Position numbers and translations under genes: made by a program. A DNA stretch of 9,599 nucleotides from a virus (taxonomy: Duplodnaviria > Heunggongvirae > Uroviricota > Caudoviricetes): the IMG/VR virus record IMGVR_UViG_2713896901_000003, positions 1 to 9,599 of that record; one strand, given 5' to 3'. Positions 41 to 7,301 of this stretch are shown here, piece after piece. The stretch's first letter is position 1; the number at the start of each line of letters is the position of its first letter. A model generated the notes under the pieces. It made no database searches and was not told the DNA's origin. It saw only the letters and a program-made list of their open reading frames with translations.

Positions 41-72
41 AAATAAAAAGGCCTGCGATTACCAGCAGGCCT
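41..72 (-). terminator. Rho-independent terminator in the tR2 position, between the ren-slot ORF and ninB
   Basis: A perfect 8-bp stem, AGGCCTGC (49-56) pairing with GCAGGCCT (65-72), encloses an 8-nt loop. On the minus strand it is followed by TTTTATTT, the complement of 41-48. It lies 25 nt downstream of the stop of the 98..367 ORF. Confidence 0.7.
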
Positions 73-97
73 GTTATTAGCTCAGTGATGTAGATGG

Positions 98-367
98 TCA
101 TTGCTTCATCTCACTTTCCATTTCATCAATGTCAACGTCATCAGGAAGGTGGGAGCAATACGCCGCTATACCATGATGATTTATCTCATACCCTTTAAAC
201 GTTACCATCTGGCGCGTAATCTCAACTTCGTTCAGGAATCCGCCATCGCATAACTGCCTGGCTATTTTCGATTTGGTCTGGATTATTGGTAGTGCCTGTT
301 CTTTCAAAGCGTATGATATTTGTGCATCCCATGCCTTTTCGAGAATGGCTAATTGTTTTTTATTCAT
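98..367 (-). CDS. Hypothetical 89-aa protein in the ren/nin slot downstream of the helicase
   Basis: Intact ORF. Its start overlaps the helicase stop (ATGA overlap at 364-367). It sits in the operon position that ren occupies in lambda. I do not recognise the protein. Confidence 0.6.
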   Translation of the reverse strand: MNKKQLAILEKAWDAQISYALKEQALPIIQTKSKIARQLCDGGFLNEVEITRQMVTFKGYEINHHGIAAYCSHLPDDVDIDEMESEMKQ

Positions 368-1803
368 CAGAATCCTCCTTTCTTCTTGGACTGCGGTTCC
401 TCGCGTTCACGGCGGCGCATTTCAGCAGACTGTTGGTCTGTGTCATAAATAGCGCCATTTGCCTGAATGCAATACACCGTGCCGGTATTGCCATGACGAT
501 TGAGACGAAGGATTAGTTCGGTTTCACCAGGTGGAACACTGTCATCAAAAGCACCTTCACGATGGATCCCCACCCAATAATCGCAATCCTGTTCAATCTG
601 CCCTGTATCTCGGGAGTCACTTGGTAATGGGCGTTTATTGGTTCGGCTTTCCAGTGCGCGGTTAAGCTGTGTCAGAAGCACAACAACGCAATCAAGCTCT
701 TTGGCAAGGTTCTTCAGTCCTTTGGTGATCATGCCGTAGGCAAGGTCGTTACGATCGGCCTTTTCAGCGGTCATTAGTGTCAGGTAATCGACAAGAATCA
801 TGCCAACGCATCCTTTTTCTCGTTTGATTCGACGGCTTTCGCTGACGATTTGAGCCAAAGATAATCCCGGCGTGTCGTCGATGTAAAGCAGGTCGATTTC
901 ACTCAAGCGATTGGCTGTTTCTATCGCCCTGTTGAAGTCACCATCGTAATCACCCTGATAGCCGTCATCAGCGTCATTTGTCGCCGGAAGGTAAAAAATA
1001 TTCGGGTTAACACCTGACTTCTGCCCTACCAGTTTTTCCAGTATCTGGTCACTTGGCATTTCAAGGCTGAACATCAGAGCGGGCTTTTTCTCATGCACTG
1101 CGCAGTTGATTGCCATCTGGCTGTATAGCGTCGTTTTCCCCATCTTAGGGCGAGCGCCAATGACAAACAGAGAGCCTTTCACCAGACCTTTCGGTGACAG
1201 CATCCTGTCCAGCGATGGGATCCCTGTGCTCATTCCTCGTTGTTCGCCTGACGGGTCAAATCGCTTCTCAAGGTCGCTAACCCAGTCTTCCATGACCTCA
1301 CCAAATGAGCGAAGGCCGCGACGCGATCCGGTTTTTGCATGGTCTGTCAGTTGCGTGAAAATCGCCTGAATAGCTTCGTACTTCTGCGTCGCAGTCATTC
1401 CGTTGCGGGAATAGAGCAATTCCGTCGCTTCAGTCATGCGGTTGATGGCGTAGCGTTCCATTGCGGTTTCGCGAACCTGCATTGCATAGGCAACGATGTT
1501 TGCGGCGCTTGGCGTGTTCTTTGCGATCTCAGCGATATAAGCAAAACCGCCAACAGACGCCGTTAACGATTTACGCTCCAGTTCATCGAAAAGCGTCAGG
1601 CCATCTACTGGCTTTTGCTCCCGGTGCATTCTGATTATTTCTTCGAAAAGGATTTTGTGTGGTCGGCTGTAAAATGAATCAGGCTTCAGCATCGCCAGAA
1701 CTTTCTGGACGCGCTCACTGCTGTCATCATCCAGAAGCAATCCACCAATCACCGCCTGCTCTGCCTCGATGCTATGGGGCGGCGCATAAAAATTATCGGT
1801 CAT
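367..1803 (-). CDS. Phage-encoded DnaB-family replicative DNA helicase (P22 gene 12 type)
   Basis: The N-terminus carries the DnaB-typical motif HSIEAEQAVIGGLLLD. A Walker A motif GARPKMGKTT and a DYLTLM motif are present. Length is about 478 aa. The ORF track begins at a GTG (1818). The ATG at 1801-1803 has a GAGGG ribosome-binding site 7 nt upstream and overlaps the O-like stop, giving ATGACCGATAA. Confidence 0.9.
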   Translation of the reverse strand: MTDNFYAPPHSIEAEQAVIGGLLLDDDSSERVQKVLAMLKPDSFYSRPHKILFEEIIRMHREQKPVDGLTLFDELERKSLTASVGGFAYIAEIAKNTPSAANIVAYAMQVRETAMERYAINRMTEATELLYSRNGMTATQKYEAIQAIFTQLTDHAKTGSRRGLRSFGEVMEDWVSDLEKRFDPSGEQRGMSTGIPSLDRMLSPKGLVKGSLFVIGARPKMGKTTLYSQMAINCAVHEKKPALMFSLEMPSDQILEKLVGQKSGVNPNIFYLPATNDADDGYQGDYDGDFNRAIETANRLSEIDLLYIDDTPGLSLAQIVSESRRIKREKGCVGMILVDYLTLMTAEKADRNDLAYGMITKGLKNLAKELDCVVVLLTQLNRALESRTNKRPLPSDSRDTGQIEQDCDYWVGIHREGAFDDSVPPGETELILRLNRHGNTGTVYCIQANGAIYDTDQQSAEMRRREREEPQSKKKGGF

Positions 1804-2692
1804 CGTGTTCACCCTCACGAACTTTCAGGTAGGTATTATCGTTAAGCAGGAAATCAAATCCCTTTTTGTGCCAGACAGTTCCGCGTTGATGGTTTGGGCG
1901 CTCTTCGAACATCCATCGGCAATTTTCGCCTACGTAGCTCAAATAATTTCTCCAGTCCTGCATCGAGAACCCATGCCCGTCAAGCTGGCGGGTTATAACT
2001 CCGGCTTTGCGCCAGAACGTTCGGATCTGGTTTTTACGCTTGTCATTCAGTGCGCGGATTCTTGGCGCTTCAGGAAGGATTTCGTGGTAAGCATCGACAA
2101 CATCCTGACAGCTGACGGAAGGTTTTTTCTTGTCAGACTTTTTGTCTGCTGTGGCACTCTCTAATACGTCAGTATTAGAGATAATATTATTATATTCTTT
2201 ATCTGTGGTAATTTGCTGGTAATCTGCTGGTACTGTATTGCTTACAGGCATTGGTATTGCTGGCTTTGAGGTGGTAATTTGCTGGTAATCTGCTGGTACA
2301 AAATTTGACTGATAATCGTCATATTTCTCTACCGAGAAAACTGAGAATTTACCGTGTGAAACCCAGTCAATCATGCCGAGTTTTTTGAACTTTCTAAGCA
2401 GGTACTGAACGCGATCTGGTTTGAGTCCTGTTTCAAACGCCAGAGAGTTTCTACCGCCAAGTAGCTTCCCTCTGCCTACCAGAATTTCTCCTGCGTCAGT
2501 CATTACATACTCAGGCGTATGCTTTGCTTTGAGGATTAAGTGAACCCACAGATGCGCTGCTTCTGCGTCCTTGTAAAACGGCACATCCATAATTTTACGG
2601 TGCAGCAAGGCATACCCCTTACCGCTGCTTTGATGCGGTCGTTGTAGCCTTCTGGCCTCTCTGGCTTCGGCTAGATTAGATATGTTACTCAT
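1793..2692 (-). CDS. Replication initiation protein with lambda-O-like function, carrying ori iterons in its coding sequence (resembles P22 gene 18 type)
   Basis: 299-aa ORF immediately upstream of the helicase and translationally coupled to it. It contains an internal direct DNA repeat that encodes the duplicated peptide [10 protein letters not shown]. This is the same arrangement as the lambda ori, which lies inside the O gene. The N-terminus resembles phage replisome-organiser proteins. Confidence 0.8.
2165..2299. repeat. Putative origin of replication: iterons plus an adjacent AT-rich tract inside the O-like gene
   Basis: A perfect 29-bp direct repeat, GTGGTAATTTGCTGGTAATCTGCTGGTAC, occurs at 2205-2233 and again at 2271-2299. 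Each copy holds two GCTGGTA(A/C) iteron cores, and a fifth core, TTGCTGGC, lies between the copies. The flanking tract 2165-2204 (AGAGATAATATTATTATATTCTTTATC) is AT-rich and lies downstream in the O reading direction, as in lambda ori. Confidence 0.65.
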
Positions 2693-2831
2693 GACCTTTC
2701 TCCTTCTGCATCAGCTTCACTTTTTCCAACTCAGCCCGGAATCGACCAGGCTGCTTGAAGCTGGACAGGAAGCGATCACGTAGTATGTGTTTGTGAATTT
2801 TGTCCTGGTAAGGACTGAGTTGTTTTGTCAT
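2685..2831 (-). CDS. Small basic 48-aa ORF between cII and the O-like gene, absent from the ORF track
   Basis: Sequence [48 protein letters not shown]. Its ribosome-binding site and start, AGGAGTAATTATGACAAA, match the lambda O translation start as I recall it. The ORF ends with TAA overlapping the ATG of the O-like gene (GGTCATGAGTAA), which implies translational coupling. Confidence 0.45.
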
Positions 2832-2842
2832 AATTACTCCTG

Positions 2843-2920
2843 TGGATTGATCCAGTAATGACCTCAGAATTCCATCTGGATTTGTTCAGAACGCTCGGTC
2901 TTGCACACCGGGCGTTTTTT
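2843..2920 (+). ncRNA. oop: OOP-like antisense RNA, complementary to the 3' end of cII, with its own intrinsic terminator
   Basis: Plus strand 2843-2920 reads GTGGATTGATCCAGTAATGACCTCAGAATTCCATCTGGATTTGTTCAGAACGCTCGG, followed by a terminator stem CGCTCGGT (2892-2899) pairing with ACCGGGCG (2907-2914) and TTTTTTCTTT (2915-2924). This closely parallels lambda OOP RNA as I recall it. A candidate -10 element, CATAAT, lies at 2829-2834. Confidence 0.6.
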
Positions 2921-3163
2921 CTTTGTGATTCCATCAAGCGCATACTTAAAAGCCCTGCTAATTGGACTGATGTCTGATGCCATTCCGAAAGCACACAAGA
3001 CCGAAGCAATAAACCGCCAGTCCGTTCTGCTTATCTTCGATTCATGACAGCCAATCATCTTTGCCAGACCACGCTGGGTAAGCGTTGACAGGTTGATGAG
3101 TAAATCTGTTTCTGCGCGATCAACGTCACGCTGTGATAGTTTGCTGTAACTTGTTTGTTCCAT
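2864..3163 (-). CDS. cII: CII transcriptional activator, the lysogeny establishment regulator
   Basis: 99 aa. The C-terminus [19 protein letters not shown] matches lambda CII ([17 protein letters not shown]) and the HTH region KSQISR-like motif is present. It sits between cro and O, as in lambda. Confidence 0.9.
3141..3154 (+). promoter_or_regulatory. Putative CII-binding direct repeat, TTGC-N6-TTGT, at a pRE-like promoter directed toward cI
   Basis: TTGC (3141-3144), TGTAAC, TTGT (3151-3154) lie within the first codons of cII. The spacing to the cII start codon (CAT at 3161-3163) is the same as lambda TTGC-N6-TTGC at pRE. There is one mismatch in the second repeat. Confidence 0.4.
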
Positions 3164-3190
3164 TTCTTATGATTTCCAATAGTGAATATT

Positions 3191-3216
3191 ACGCATCTGT
3201 TGATGCGTTTTTTGTG
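3191..3216 (+). terminator. Intrinsic-terminator-like hairpin oriented on the plus strand between cII and cro
   Basis: Stem ACGCATC (3191-3197), loop TGTT, stem GATGCGT (3202-3208), then TTTTT, GTG. On the minus strand the 3' flank is AATATT, which is not a good terminator. Confidence 0.4.
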
Positions 3217-3253
3217 GGGACGAATCATCCCCGACCTGATTGTTTAAAGAGCG
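3216..3253 (-). promoter_or_regulatory. nutR: boxA plus a boxB hairpin immediately downstream of cro
   Basis: The minus strand reads CGCTCTTTAAACA (boxA; 3241-3253), then ATCAGGTC, then GGGGATGATTCGTCCCC (boxB hairpin; 3216-3232). The identical 17-nt boxB recurs on the plus strand at 4948-4964. Confidence 0.7.
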
Positions 3254-3260
3254 GTGTTAC

Positions 3261-3485
3261 TTATGCTGCCTGATTCGGTTTTGGAAACAGGTGTGGCAAA
3301 TCGGGGCGAATTTCGTAAGCCTTGATCTGCCCTCCAGTGGCGTTAACGATGGCGGTAACTTTCTCTGGAGAGACCAACCCGCCTTTCAGCCATTTGTGTA
3401 CTGCTGGCTGCGTTACACCACACTTGTCGGCAAGGCGCTTTTGGCTACCGACAATTTTCAAGGCTCGTTGAATTACTAAATTCAT
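3261..3485 (-). CDS. cro: Cro-like repressor with a small HTH
   Basis: About 74 aa, MNLVIQRALKIVGSQKRLADKCGVTQPAVHKWLKGG..., divergent from cI across the operator region. The ORF track starts at 3506, but that first ATG lies about 1 nt from the predicted pR +1 and has no ribosome-binding site. The ATG at 3483-3485 is preceded by AAGAGGT with proper spacing. Confidence 0.8.
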   Translation of the reverse strand: MNLVIQRALKIVGSQKRLADKCGVTQPAVHKWLKGGLVSPEKVTAIVNATGGQIKAYEIRPDLPHLFPKPNQAA

Positions 3486-3518
3486 GAGCATACCTCTTGT
3501 GGTCATTACTTATAACCA

Positions 3519-3584
3519 AAGATAACTCAAGTTATAAAAAATAGCAATAACCTTTGTTATTTTACTTTGGATAACCGTAGTTAT
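3519..3584. promoter_or_regulatory. oR/pR/pRM immunity control region with three 14-bp operators
   Basis: Three operators: ATAACTCAAGTTAT (3522-3535), ATAACCTTTGTTAT (3547-3560) and ATAACCGTAGTTAT (3571-3584). Centre-to-centre spacings are 25 and 24 bp. pR on the minus strand has -35 TTGCTA (3542-3547), 17 nt of spacer, and -10 TATCTT (3519-3524). A candidate pRM -10, TATAGA (3582-3587), precedes a leaderless cI ATG at 3597. Confidence 0.7.
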
Positions 3585-3596
3585 AGATTTGTGGGT

Positions 3597-4304
3597 ATGA
3601 AAACATTCGCAGAAAGACTAAATGCAGCCATGAGCTCAGCAGGTGTGTCGCAATCACAGCTTGCTGACATGGTTGGAATATCTCAGCCAGCCATACAGAA
3701 GATGTCATCCGGTAAAACAAACGGATCTCGCAAGATGGTTGAATTAGCCAATGCTTTAAAAGTACGCCCTGAATGGCTTAGCTCTGGTATTGGTGAAATG
3801 AGGGATGGTACACATGAAGAACCATCCAATGTCCGTGAATCATCTTTAAAAGCTGTGGTATGGGAAGATATTAAAAGAAACGATGACGAGTTTGTCGCGT
3901 TGCCTCTTCTTAACGTTTCGCTTTCAGCTGGAAACGGTAGCTGCGAGCTAGAGGAATCATCAGAGTTCTCTTTGGTTTTCAGAAAGTACTATCTGAAAAA
4001 GATGGGGGTATCTGAAAGATCAGCCAAGCTAGTTAGGGTTGTAGGGCAAAGCATGGAACCAACGCTTCACGACGGAGATGTTGTTGGTGTTAACACACAA
4101 GATACCACAATCAGAGATGGTAAAACCTACGCTATTTGCCAGTCTGATTTGTTACGAGTAAAAACATTAATCGCCACCCCTACATCGGTGATAATCAGAT
4201 CAATAAATCGCGAAGAGTACCCAGATGAAGTAATGGATAGAGATGAATTTCATGAAACCGTAAGGATTATTGGCAGAGTATTCTGGTCGTCTCATAGTTG
4301 GTAA
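3597..4304 (+). CDS. cI: CI-type prophage repressor: N-terminal HTH, C-terminal S24 LexA-like autopeptidase
   Basis: HTH segment QSQLADMVGISQPAIQKM. Candidate Ala-Gly cleavage site in SLSAGNG. Catalytic Ser in GQSMEPT and Lys in LLRVKTL. The ORF track begins at a TTG (3567) that lies inside OR3. The ATG at 3597 gives a 235-aa leaderless product, as for lambda cI transcribed from pRM. Confidence 0.9.
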   Translation: MKTFAERLNAAMSSAGVSQSQLADMVGISQPAIQKMSSGKTNGSRKMVELANALKVRPEWLSSGIGEMRDGTHEEPSNVRESSLKAVVWEDIKRNDDEFVALPLLNVSLSAGNGSCELEESSEFSLVFRKYYLKKMGVSERSAKLVRVVGQSMEPTLHDGDVVGVNTQDTTIRDGKTYAICQSDLLRVKTLIATPTSVIIRSINREEYPDEVMDRDEFHETVRIIGRVFWSSHSW

Positions 4305-4344: not shown

Positions 4345-4641
4345 ATGGAATTTCTGATAGTTTTTGTTGTTGTTTTGGTCATCATTCTTTTTGTTTTGCT
4401 AAGCATTAGCAAAAAGCTATCTCAAATGATTGAACATAGCTCTAATCGCGCAAAAGAAGAAGACCATCTAATTGATATAAAAGAGATTCTCTCTGATATA
4501 AAAATCACATTAGATGAAATAAAATACACAACAGATCTAATTGAACAGTATAAAATACCAACCCCAAACGAAAGAAAAGCAATAGATCAATATCGTATTG
4601 ACTTAGAAATCGACGAAATGCTAAGCAAAAGAAAAGACTAA
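4345..4641 (+). CDS. AT-rich moron encoding a 98-aa bitopic membrane protein: N-terminal TM anchor plus an acidic helical tail. It occupies the rexAB or lysogenic-conversion slot downstream of cI.
   Basis: Strong ribosome-binding site, GGAGGGATAATG. Residues 3-22, FLIVFVVVLVIILFVLLSIS, form a TM helix, followed by KK and a helical tail rich in charged residues. GC content is about 30 %, against about 50 % for the flanks. The gene is 40 nt downstream of cI with no terminator between them, and is followed by a tImm-like terminator. Confidence 0.7.
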   Translation: MEFLIVFVVVLVIILFVLLSISKKLSQMIEHSSNRAKEEDHLIDIKEILSDIKITLDEIKYTTDLIEQYKIPTPNERKAIDQYRIDLEIDEMLSKRKD

Positions 4642-6028: not shown

Positions 6029-6074
6029 CATAAACAACAGAATAAACACTGCACTGAATTATTTGAGGTTAGAT

Positions 6075-6545
6075 ATGACAAAATCATGGAGCGTACCTTT
6101 TCCTGAATCAGAAACTGAACATGAGGGAATGCCTGTTTTCTGGAGATTCCAGGCGACAGTTGAAGAAGATGGAATCAAAATATTCGCACTTCAATATATA
6201 GCTTTTCATCAGACAGAGCATTATGCATGGTTGGTTCCTGCGCATTGGATTGTTAATTTTAAACCAGCACCAAATCAGTGGTTACAGGAATGGAAACAAA
6301 GGAGAAATAGATATGCAATTAAGAAAGTAGCAAAAAATGCAGAAAGATCTTTTGCATTCCCAACGAAGAAACTTGCCATTGAAAGTTTATTGCGCCGGAA
6401 GAAATACCATTTAATGAGAATCAAACAAGATTTGGCTGTTGTATCAACTCTTGTTGATGGGATGAAGAATATTGATACATCAACACCAGATATTGAATAT
6501 AACTTTGGACACAACCAAGAAACAGAAAATTGGGTGTTTTATTAG
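6075..6545 (+). CDS. Hypothetical 156-aa Trp-rich protein: moron B, non-lambda
   Basis: Ribosome-binding site GAGGT 5 nt before the ATG at 6075. The ORF track uses a TTG at 6063. Seven Trp residues and a basic central region, KQRRNRYAIKKVAKNAERS. I do not recognise the protein. Confidence 0.65.
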   Translation: MTKSWSVPFPESETEHEGMPVFWRFQATVEEDGIKIFALQYIAFHQTEHYAWLVPAHWIVNFKPAPNQWLQEWKQRRNRYAIKKVAKNAERSFAFPTKKLAIESLLRRKKYHLMRIKQDLAVVSTLVDGMKNIDTSTPDIEYNFGHNQETENWVFY

Positions 6546-7115: not shown

Positions 7116-7136
7116 TGTATAAATAAGGAGCACACC

Positions 7137-7301
7137 ATGCAATATGCCATTGCAGGGTGGCCTGTTGCTGGCTGCCCTTCCGAATCTTTACTTGAACGAA
7201 TCACCCGTAAATTACGTGACGGATGGAAACGCCTTATCGACATACTTAATCAGCCAGGAGTCCCAAAAAATGGATCAAACACTTATGGCTATCCAGACTA
7301 A
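7137..7301 (+). CDS. cIII: CIII, the FtsH inhibitor that stabilises CII
   Basis: Translates to [54 protein letters not shown], which is identical to lambda CIII by recollection. Ribosome-binding site AAGGAG. Confidence 0.9.
   Translation: MQYAIAGWPVAGCPSESLLERITRKLRDGWKRLIDILNQPGVPKNGSNTYGYPD

Follow-up and report, generated by a model that had tools for sequence, protein, structure and literature searches.

The cII–oop–orf48–O junction of an HK022/HK620-type lambdoid prophage, and the constraints acting on its small gene orf48

Introduction

What lies between the lambda-like end of a cII gene and a replication module that is not that of lambda, and does the small open reading frame found there encode a protein? 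This question is raised by a 9,599-nucleotide stretch of tailed-phage DNA (IMG/VR record IMGVR_UViG_2713896901_000003; hereafter, the window). We put the probability at roughly 90% that the window contains the usual early-right (pR) operon of Escherichia coli lambdoid prophages of the HK022/HK620 type, with cro, cII, the antisense gene oop, orf48, an HK022-type O and a P of the DnaB helicase type (Table 1). The cII–oop–orf48–O junction is an arrangement already published for HK022/P22-type lambdoid prophages. To that picture we add evidence for protein-level selection on the core of orf48, and for a constraint imposed on its 5' codons by the pO promoter on the opposite strand.

Table 1. Features at and around the cII–O junction (window coordinates).
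Feature	Coordinates	Strand	Description and basis
Lambda-homologous island	2824..2928	.	The only one in the region; last cII codons, tO-oop, pO −10, RBS and ATGACAAA; BLASTN
cII, 99 aa	2864..3163	-	Pfam Phage_CII, E 1.6e-34; 5' three-quarters HK022/HK97-type, last ~16 codons lambda-type and overlapping oop
oop, antisense RNA of ~80 nt (putative transcript)	2842..2921	+	5' G at 2842; homology to lambda oop 38599-38675
tO, intrinsic terminator	2888..2925	+	Hairpin 2888-2918 with 12-bp stem (6 G-C pairs) and 7-nt loop, then TTTTTTCTTTG; terminator scan
pO promoter (predicted)	2806..2834	+	−10 CATAAT 2829-2834; extended −10 TGT 2826-2828; weak −35 TGGTAA 2806-2811; 17-bp spacer
orf48 (DUF2740), 48 aa, basic	2685..2831	-	Pfam PF10872; SD AGGAG at 2841..2837
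Coupling junction (putative)	2685..2705	-	Initiator SD AAGGAG 2705..2700 within orf48 codons 43-44; stop/start overlap ATGAGTAA 2692..2685
HK022-type O initiator, 299 aa	1793..2692	-	ori iterons 2205-2299 (direct repeats); PHROG 345 'replication initiation O-like', 4.6e-87
HK022-type P, DnaB-family replicative helicase, 483 aa	367..1818	-	Pfam DnaB_C 1.3e-60, DnaB 3.1e-31

Results

Lambda homology is limited to a conserved oop/pO cassette

Comparison of lambda 37900-39700 with the window by BLASTN gave a single HSP, in which window 2928..2824 aligns with lambda 38592-38693 (90.5% identity over 105 nt, E 3.9e-35); the match ends after ATGACAAA, at the eighth nucleotide of O. Identity to lambda is 90% in OOP and 94% from the Shine-Dalgarno (SD) sequence to nucleotide 8, and falls beyond that to the background level of ~56%. 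A preliminary description of this DNA had quoted the minus-strand string GGATCAATCCACAGGAGTAATTATGACAAAACAACT, which is indeed found at 2852..2817, and had given the start of lambda O exactly, as GGATCTATCAACAGGAGTCATTATGACAAATACAGC; its claim that lambda homology passes the ribosome-binding site (RBS) and the first codons and then stops agrees with the alignment. The junction between modules that it described is real; the downstream initiator has no similarity to lambda O (BLASTP E 4.8). Its view that the 3' end of cII and OOP are lambda-like holds for OOP, and for cII only in the last ~16 codons; the cII protein is 85% identical to that of HK022 and 39% identical overall to that of lambda, to which its C-terminus is nearly identical.

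Matches to other lambdoid phages extend over different intervals. The HK022 block runs from 3178 to at least 1100 (97% identity), the HK630 block covers 2856..364 (98.5%), the P22 block covers 2856..2685 (90.7%), with its end exactly at 2685, and the HK97 block covers 3188..2822. Homology thus ends at 2856, inside the 5' part of oop, for P22 and HK620, at 2822-2824 for lambda and HK97, and at 2685, at ATGAGTAA, for P22. We propose that the short, constrained oop/pO linker serves as a site of exchange for lambdoid modules, which would explain why homology to different phages ends at different points, and we identify the 105-bp lambda-like stretch with the conserved tO-oop-pO cassette. Previous work has described a 33-bp oop/pO block that is conserved among lambdoid phages, with the linker common to 23 of them, has placed the start of divergence at lambda position 38694, at −19 of pO, and has noted that orf48 lies between oop and gene 18 in P22 and is 'naturally missing' from lambda (Hayes et al. 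2012, PMC3349717). What had been taken for a recombination breakpoint in the opening codons of lambda O is better understood as this conserved linker of ~33 bp. RefSeq E. coli genomes annotate the same triplet, as 'CII family regulator | DUF2740 family protein | DNA replication protein'.

The replication module is not a generic P22-type module but that of HK022/HK620, with a DNA identity of 97-98.5%. O has 98.7% amino acid identity to HK022 O, and P has the same identity to HK022 P over the available part of the latter.

The predicted OOP RNA stops short of the orf48 start

Within the aligned region, 72 of 80 positions (90%) of oop are identical to lambda oop. Lambda OOP is 77 nt long, has a 5' pppG, and overlaps 52 nt plus the stop codon of cII (PMC3349717); transferring its 5' end, lambda 38675 as derived from these overlap figures, places the putative start at window position 2842. 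An RNA from this position would be complementary to cII over its last 55 nt plus the stop codon, as well as to 22 nt in the spacer between cII and orf48. OOP had been assigned to 2843-2920; its predicted coordinates shift to 2842-2921. The plus-strand terminator, previously put at 2892-2920, is also present: tO is an intrinsic terminator on the strand opposite cII, within the cII 3' end, and an equivalent hairpin and T-run, with differing stem sequences, are found in 10/10 orf48 loci examined. An 84-nt plus-strand RNA covering 2842-2925 has a predicted fold of -27.7 kcal/mol (z = -3.1). Searching Rfam with the whole window at E ≤ 1 yielded no match to an OOP family, the only two hits, both elsewhere in the window, being a cIII thermometer and a sub-threshold Trp-leader-like terminator.

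We placed pO by homology to lambda. A generic sigma-70 consensus scan of 2500-3600 called no promoter, because the −35 element, TGGTAA, matches at only 3/6 positions; in the alignment, lambda pO has TTGAGT as −35 and the same −10, CATAAT. The CAT of this −10 is the complement of the orf48 ATG, and TGTCATAAT is conserved, with a spacing of 7 nt to G2842. Mutation of ATTAT (the −10) at the O start/ATG inactivates pO (Hayes et al. 2012, PMC3349717), and both a distinct P22-type −35 and a hybrid pO that combines the lambda −10 with the P22 −35 have been described (PMC3349717). Lambda O, orf48 and HK97 gp53 share the RBS, the ATG and the first ~8 nt; we attribute the conservation of the RBS and ATG to the opposite strand, where the same nucleotides form the discriminator, −10 (CATAAT) and extended −10 (TGT) of pO. 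The pO −35 region and the O iterons both contain the 7-mer CTGGTAA, a possible link that we rejected as chance, since the A/C variant there does not track the type of initiator.

OOP would start from pO at G2842 on the plus strand and would pair with the 3' end of the cII mRNA; in lambda, such pairing leads to RNase III cleavage and lower CII (PMC3349717). The preliminary description went further, suggesting a recombination event that joined the translation start of lambda O to a novel 48-aa ORF whose RBS and start codon are covered by OOP, such that OOP controls the replication operon translationally in a way that lambda OOP does not. We consider this highly improbable. In its favour, the similarity to lambda does break off 8 nt inside the ORF; a duplex of OOP with the mRNA would come within 1 nt of the SD, inside the 30S footprint, so that some effect on initiation is conceivable; and lambda OOP directs RNase III cleavage of 'cII-O' mRNA, according to the title of Krinke & Wulff 1990. 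However, the predicted OOP 5' end precedes the SD by 1 nt and the ATG (2831-2829) by 11 nt, so that both would fall outside the transcript, and it is the pO −10 that overlaps the ATG; even the interval 2843-2920 reaches neither element, contrary to the text that gave it. Lambda O shows this same spacing and sequence, such that there is nothing phage-specific about the geometry here, and the claimed difference from lambda OOP is unfounded. The shared ATG and RBS are accounted for by the −10 of pO on the opposite strand, and the ORF itself has long been known.

orf48 is a known, widespread gene at an invariant position

The 48-aa basic ORF (12 K/R vs 6 D/E) is present, as had been described, and is conserved across phages, but it is not novel. 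It is orf48 of HK022 (U02466) and P22 (ORF48, AF217253), and a member of Pfam DUF2740 (PF10872; score 99.4 bits, gathering threshold 27, E 8.9e-29, match over profile positions 1-43 of 43) that also matches PHROG 1913 (E 2.7e-28); no NCBIfam model matched it. The HK022 record reads 'sequence well conserved in phage p22; orf48 gene product', and both records give the function as 'unknown'. We found the gene in 127 phage records, and PGAP names it in E. coli genomes. Its carriers include prophages of Escherichia, Salmonella, Citrobacter, Klebsiella, Erwinia and others, among them Stx-converting phages, with amino acid identities of 100% for HK022, HK620 and Stx phages, 85% for P22 and 58% for an Erwinia phage. 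A literature search on 'DUF2740' returned nothing, and we found no report of an orf48 phenotype; the name 'orf48: gnarl1' (Nat Commun 2025) was rejected as a lead, since it is a library index, taken from lytic phages and unrelated. We regard the PHROG/RefSeq label 'tail protein' for the DUF2740 family as a misannotation, because the position of the gene in the early replication operon is invariant.

In 10/10 comparison loci, orf48 has a cII-like gene upstream and ATGAGTAA or ATGGATAA downstream. It precedes two unrelated initiator N-termini and adjoins at least three cII types, and from these comparisons it appears to be independently mobile. As previously described, its TAA overlaps the ATG of the initiator (ATGAGTAA, an 8-nt overlap, within GGTCATGAGTAA); GGTCATGAGTAA is invariant in 9/10 loci, irrespective of initiator type. 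The initiator SD, AAGGAG, sits 7 nt upstream of the initiator ATG. With a good SD of its own, the initiator may not depend on coupling.

Selection differs between the 5' codons and the core of orf48

Among six diverged loci, codons 12-41 of orf48 have a pS of 0.55, a pN of 0.16 and a pN/pS of 0.29, whereas codons 2-11 have a pS of 0.21 and a pN/pS of 0.81. The frame is open in 8/8 loci tested, with stops in the other frames in most loci. Length is held at 47-48 codons in the loci compared, and H13, K14, I16, R18 and D19 are invariant in 16/16 aligned members, down to 57-58% identity. The core (codons 12-41) is under protein-level purifying selection; in the first ~10 codons the constraint is mainly on the DNA and comes from pO. 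For a core of 30 codons, a pN/pS of 0.29 is merely moderate.

The AlphaFold2 (AF2) model of Orf48 (pLDDT 81) has helices at residues 7-25 and 28-44, a predicted amphipathic two-helix hairpin. Foldseek comparison of this model with PDB and BFVD returned no meaningful neighbours, the model being a generic helical hairpin, and a profile HMM search of 1.84 billion representative proteins gave only 13 matches, with a larger informative homologue absent.

These data bear on whether orf48 could be a non-functional spacer, conserved through DNA and RNA constraints (pO, the initiator SD and start, recombination linkers) and translated, if ever, as a coupling leader. In favour of a spacer, synonymous change is suppressed in codons 2-11, with a pN/pS of 0.81, and the C-terminal codons contain the initiator SD and start; moreover, lambda lacks the gene, the slot is taken in HK97 by an unrelated 53-aa ORF, the family is tiny and the searches found no known fold or function. 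We nevertheless consider a spacer unlikely, given the pattern of substitution in codons 12-41, the five invariant residues, the near-constant length and the confidently predicted amphipathic hairpin.

Discussion

We propose that orf48 is a genuine small protein gene that would be translated from the pR message, and whose parts may serve different ends: the first ~10 codons as pO DNA, codons 12-41 as protein, the last codons as the initiator SD, and the stop codon as an overlap with the initiator ATG. At about even odds, Orf48 may be a dispensable accessory protein of the replication module, with its translation feeding ribosomes to the initiator start (coupling) and its helical hairpin modulating early replication. 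Lambda replicates without orf48, a point against this reading.

A more specific possibility, which we regard as quite unlikely, is that Orf48/DUF2740 acts as a small regulator, one particular to lambdoid replication modules with a helicase of their own, where it would tune initiator or helicase loading or exert feedback on pO/OOP via the conserved palindrome at the −35. If true, the replication module would thereby be tied to the cII/OOP lysis-lysogeny switch. We give still less credence to Orf48 as a small DNA-binding regulator of pO/OOP or of the phage origin, in an autoregulatory loop that links replication to the cII/OOP switch, with, as an example of a site, the palindrome GTCCTGGT(A/C)AGGAC at the pO −35, inside the orf48 coding sequence. 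The protein is basic and predicted to be helical, a 14-bp inverted repeat at 2802-2815 is fully or almost fully conserved across orf48 loci, with suppressed synonymous change there, and the replication module includes its own helicase in 12/12 orf48 loci examined. This evidence is purely correlative, however: the −35 region alone accounts for the suppressed synonymous change, the Erwinia phage has a degenerate version of the palindrome and HK97 has none, keeping CCTGGTA alone, and no DNA-binding fold was matched in PDB or BFVD.

Published accounts and database entries for the junction, for the conserved oop/pO linker and for orf48 go back to the 1990s, and as discoveries these have little value. 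What remains is modest: orf48 is conserved and under purifying selection in several genera of Enterobacterales, including in Stx-converting phages, and its 5' codons, which overlap pO, show clearly how coding and promoter constraints can act on one sequence at a mosaic boundary.

Comparison with known phages

The HK022 cro-cII-orf48-O-P segment (U02466; Oberto, Sloan & Weisberg 1994, as cited in PMC3349717) shares with the window its gene order, an identical Orf48 protein and the ATGAGTAA overlap. It differs in the oop body and last cII codons, which are lambda-type here rather than HK022-type: the 40-nt stretch at about 2921-2881 has 65% identity to HK022 vs 90% to lambda, and by this comparison it is a small extra mosaic patch relative to HK022. 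P22, with the order c1-oop-orf48-18-12, has the same pO −10, the P22-type −35 and a stop/start overlap with the initiator, but its c1, its OOP body and terminator, and its initiator gp18, which has a lambda-O-like N-terminus, belong to other modules.

In the cII-oop-O region of lambda, tO-oop, the pO −10, the RBS and ATGACAAA are 90% identical to the window, and the OOP 5' end is spaced identically to the SD and ATG. Lambda differs in that the ATG opens O directly, in the −35 of pO, and in its cII body and O-P, which are unrelated; orf48 and lambda O have only M-T-(K/N) in common. Lastly, HK97 gp53, a 53-aa ORF between cII/oop and an O-like gene, fills the corresponding slot and has an identical RBS and ATGACAAAA. 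It too precedes an initiator and a DnaB-type helicase, and has CCTGGTA at the pO −35. Its likeness to Orf48 is confined to the first ~11 residues and there to MTK..YQ(E/D)K, the part that lies over pO; the remaining protein is unrelated, and the overlap with the initiator start is of a different kind.

A lambda-like island in front of a catalogued small gene

When lambda 37900-39700 was compared with the window by BLASTN, only one HSP emerged, pairing window 2928..2824 with lambda 38592-38693 (105 nt at 90.5%, E 3.9e-35). Identity to lambda is 90% in oop, which encodes the OOP antisense RNA opposite the cII 3' end, and 17/18 from the Shine-Dalgarno sequence (SD) to the eighth nucleotide of a 48-codon ORF; beyond this it drops to a background of ~56%. 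The preliminary description of this junction, made from the sequence alone, observed it accurately: its quoted window strings match the minus strand exactly, the lambda sequence it gave is exact, similarity across the lambda cII-O junction does reach the small ORF, and that ORF ends on the initiator start codon, with TAA and ATG overlapping in ATGAGTAA.

Features of the window, in window coordinates
Feature	Position	Strand	Remark
cro-like gene	3506..3261	-	upstream of cII
cro-cII spacer	3170-3260	-	hairpin at 3191-3208 within span
cII	3163..2864	-	Pfam Phage_CII, E 1.6e-34
OOP terminator (tO) hairpin	2888-2918	+	followed by TTTTTTCTTTG
OOP 5' end (predicted)	2842	+	from lambda homology
orf48 SD	2841..2837	-	AGGAG
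orf48, 48 codons	2831..2685	-	between cII and initiator
orf48 ATG	2831..2829	-	
pO extended −10 plus −10	2826-2834	+	TGTCATAAT, identical in lambda
Inverted repeat	2802-2815	+	GTCCTGGTAAGGAC
pO −35	2806-2811		TGGTAA, 17-bp spacer
Initiator gene, 299 aa	2692..1793	-	downstream of orf48
Iteron-like repeats	2205-2299		within initiator gene
DnaB-family helicase gene	1818..367	-	downstream of initiator
Trp_leader match	43-149	-	sub-threshold
ORFs flanking Nmad5 ORF	4345-4641, 6063-6545		
Nmad5 ORF, 227 aa	5328-6011	+	pL operon; E 3e-70
Lambda_thermo match	7124-7182	+	88.5 bits, E 4.5e-21
cIII gene, 54 aa	7137-7301		Pfam Lambda_CIII

The ORF had been thought novel; it is instead orf48, Pfam DUF2740 (PF10872; 99.4 bits, E 8.9e-29). 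The HK022 entry (GenBank U02466) reads 'sequence well conserved in phage p22; orf48 gene product; unknown', the P22 record (AF217253) names the gene ORF48, and PGAP annotates E. coli chromosomes with a 'DUF2740 family protein' flanked by a CII family regulator and a DNA replication protein. By tBLASTn the peptide is present in 127 phage records. It is unchanged (100% identity) in HK022, HK620, HK630, Sf101, VT2-Sakai and other Stx phages; identity is 85% for P22 and its relatives and 58% for Midgardsormr38, an Erwinia phage. In PHROG 1913, and in many phage entries of RefSeq (HK620 hkaW, HK630 gp48, Sf101, mEp235, Midgardsormr38 ORF62), this early-operon protein is called 'tail protein', almost certainly a propagated misannotation.

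The replication module is that of HK022/HK620: O and P each share 98.7% protein identity with their HK022 counterparts, and at the DNA level 3178..1100 matches HK022 at 97% and 2856..364 matches HK630 at 98.5%. No similarity of the initiator to lambda O was detectable. The initiator gene contains two exact 29-nt direct repeats (GTGGTAATTTGCTGGTAATCTGCTGGTAC), made of 11-nt sub-repeats and coding a duplicated peptide, which are presumably HK022-type ori iterons. We put the probability that the junction and orf48 are correctly identified at about 0.9.

Predicted position of pO and OOP at the orf48 start

The predicted ~80-nt OOP RNA folds significantly better than shuffled sequences (z -3.1); compared with lambda, its terminator loop has 3 nt inserted. 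In lambda, OOP is 77 nt long, starts with pppG, and overlaps the cII stop codon together with 52 nt of the gene (PMC3349717). It therefore extends 22 nt past the cII stop (38653) to a 5' end at 38675, which aligns to window 2842, a C on the minus strand and a G on the plus strand. The predicted transcript thus ends 1 nt before the orf48 SD and 11 nt before its ATG. The preliminary description had OOP covering both, in a geometry unlike that of lambda; the predicted 5' end lies outside both, and the geometry at lambda O is the same. A model with OOP over the orf48 start codon is very improbable.

The ATG appears to be overlapped by pO, the OOP promoter, rather than by OOP. Mutating ATTAT at the O start inactivates lambda pO (Hayes et al.; PMC3349717). 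The −35 is TTGAGT in lambda and TGGTCA in P22. What had been described as an O start fused to a foreign ORF is better read as the pO discriminator and −10, and the ribosome-binding site and ATG are probably conserved because they double as these elements. A strong hairpin followed by a U-run lies opposite the cII 3' end in 10/10 orf48 loci, with stem sequences varying by cII type, which supports a predicted OOP-like antisense RNA as a general feature of these loci.

Within orf48 codons 6-10, an inverted repeat lies over the pO −35. It has a 6+2+6 counterpart (GTCCTG-GT-CAGGAC) in the P22, Atlantibacter and Pseudescherichia loci, is degenerate in the Erwinia phage, and is absent from HK97, which retains just CCTGGTA. 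Possible readings are an operator, a small mRNA hairpin, or simply the product of −35 and codon constraints; that orf48 is a regulator acting on this palindrome is improbable.

Selection on orf48

Nei-Gojobori counts across six diverged loci (window, P22, Erwinia phage, Citrobacter, Atlantibacter, Pseudescherichia) gave pS 0.21, pN 0.17 and pN/pS 0.81 for codons 2-11 (the pO region), 0.55, 0.16 and 0.29 for the core (codons 12-41), and 0.50, 0.28 and 0.57 for codons 42-48 (initiator SD and start). At the 5' end, where pO lies, the constraint is on the DNA; in the core it is on the protein. The frame is open in 8/8 loci, with stops in other frames in most, and H13, K14, I16, R18 and D19 are invariant in 16/16 aligned members. 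The last codons hold the initiator SD (GGAG or GAGG), and residues there vary (E, R, G, D). Given the core, we consider it unlikely that orf48 is a non-functional spacer or pure coupling leader.

An AlphaFold2 model (19 homologues) is a two-helix hairpin (7-25 and 28-44; pLDDT 81), for which Foldseek gave no neighbours in either PDB or BFVD. Very few relatives exist: a search of 1.84 billion representatives gave 13 at E ≤ 1e-3, and clustering at 90% identity leaves 55 clusters, nearly all of them from Enterobacterales.

Mosaic boundaries

Homology endpoints for different phages fall at three sites: at about 2856, within the oop 5' part (P22, HK630); at 2822-2824, where lambda and HK97 stop matching 8-10 nt inside the small ORF; and at 2685, the final base of ATGAGTAA (P22). 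A ~50-bp patch (2881-2928) covering the oop body and last cII codons is lambda-type (90%). Identity to HK022 falls to ~65% at 2920-2881, against 95-100% on either side of the patch. Across 10 loci, orf48 follows at least three cII types and precedes two unrelated initiator N-termini (HK022-O type and P22 gp18/lambda-O type), keeping the junction GGTCATGAGTAA throughout (variant ATGGATAA in one MAG). It behaves as a separate mosaic unit. In HK97 the same slot holds an unrelated 53-aa ORF, gp53, whose similarity to orf48 is confined to the pO portion (first 11 residues).

Other features of the window

The cro-cII spacer has a boxA-like CGCTCTTTAA and two hairpins, GGGGATGATTCGTCCCC and ACGCATC..GATGCGT, the second scoring as a plus-strand terminator; it is probably a nutR/tR1-type region. 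A full-length Rfam Lambda_thermo match (cIII thermoregulator) lies at the start of cIII, with gam, RecT-type bet and YqaJ-type exo downstream. The pL operon has an ORF that matches Pfam Nmad5 (nucleotide modification associated domain 5); the two ORFs beside it match nothing in Pfam. Even the best phage relatives span just 67% of the window, and the pL region thus differs in part from that of Stx-phage relatives. The Trp_leader match (23.6 bits vs gathering score 41), driven by an intrinsic-terminator-like hairpin in the ninA region downstream of the helicase gene (GGCCTGC..GCAGGCC, then TTTTTAT), probably reflects no more than a terminator.

Proposed function and comparison with known phages

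Beyond the anatomy, homology and selection pattern that the analysis establishes, we propose that the oop cassette would be transcribed from pO and exert antisense control of cII, as in lambda, and that orf48 may be translated from the pR message and serve the replication module as a dispensable accessory gene. Termination at ATGAGTAA would help ribosomes load on the initiator start, and the small basic helical product probably modulates early replication. We infer orf48 translation, coupling and protein function, and give this sketch roughly even odds.

A phage-encoded helicase follows the initiator in every orf48 locus with a readable next gene, plus HK97 with gp53 (window and comparison loci L001, L003, L004, L006, L007, L009-L011, L013 [HK97], L014 and L015); it is DnaB-type, or a 626-aa primase-helicase-like ORF in Shimwellia L006. 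Lambda, by contrast, has the P loader and no small ORF. A small ORF-own helicase association is possible, in a small and non-independent sample.

The cII-oop-orf48 junction is already known, and the preliminary interpretation rediscovers a published arrangement. Hayes et al. (2012; PMC3349717) described it, attributing orf48 in HK022 to Oberto, Sloan & Weisberg 1994 and a 33-nt linker ('sequence 5') to Clark et al. 2001. Their lambda/P22 hybrid, whose pO combines the lambda −10 with the P22 −35, diverges from lambda 'at base −19 (38694) within pO'; the last matching lambda base here, 38693, agrees with that breakpoint to the nucleotide.
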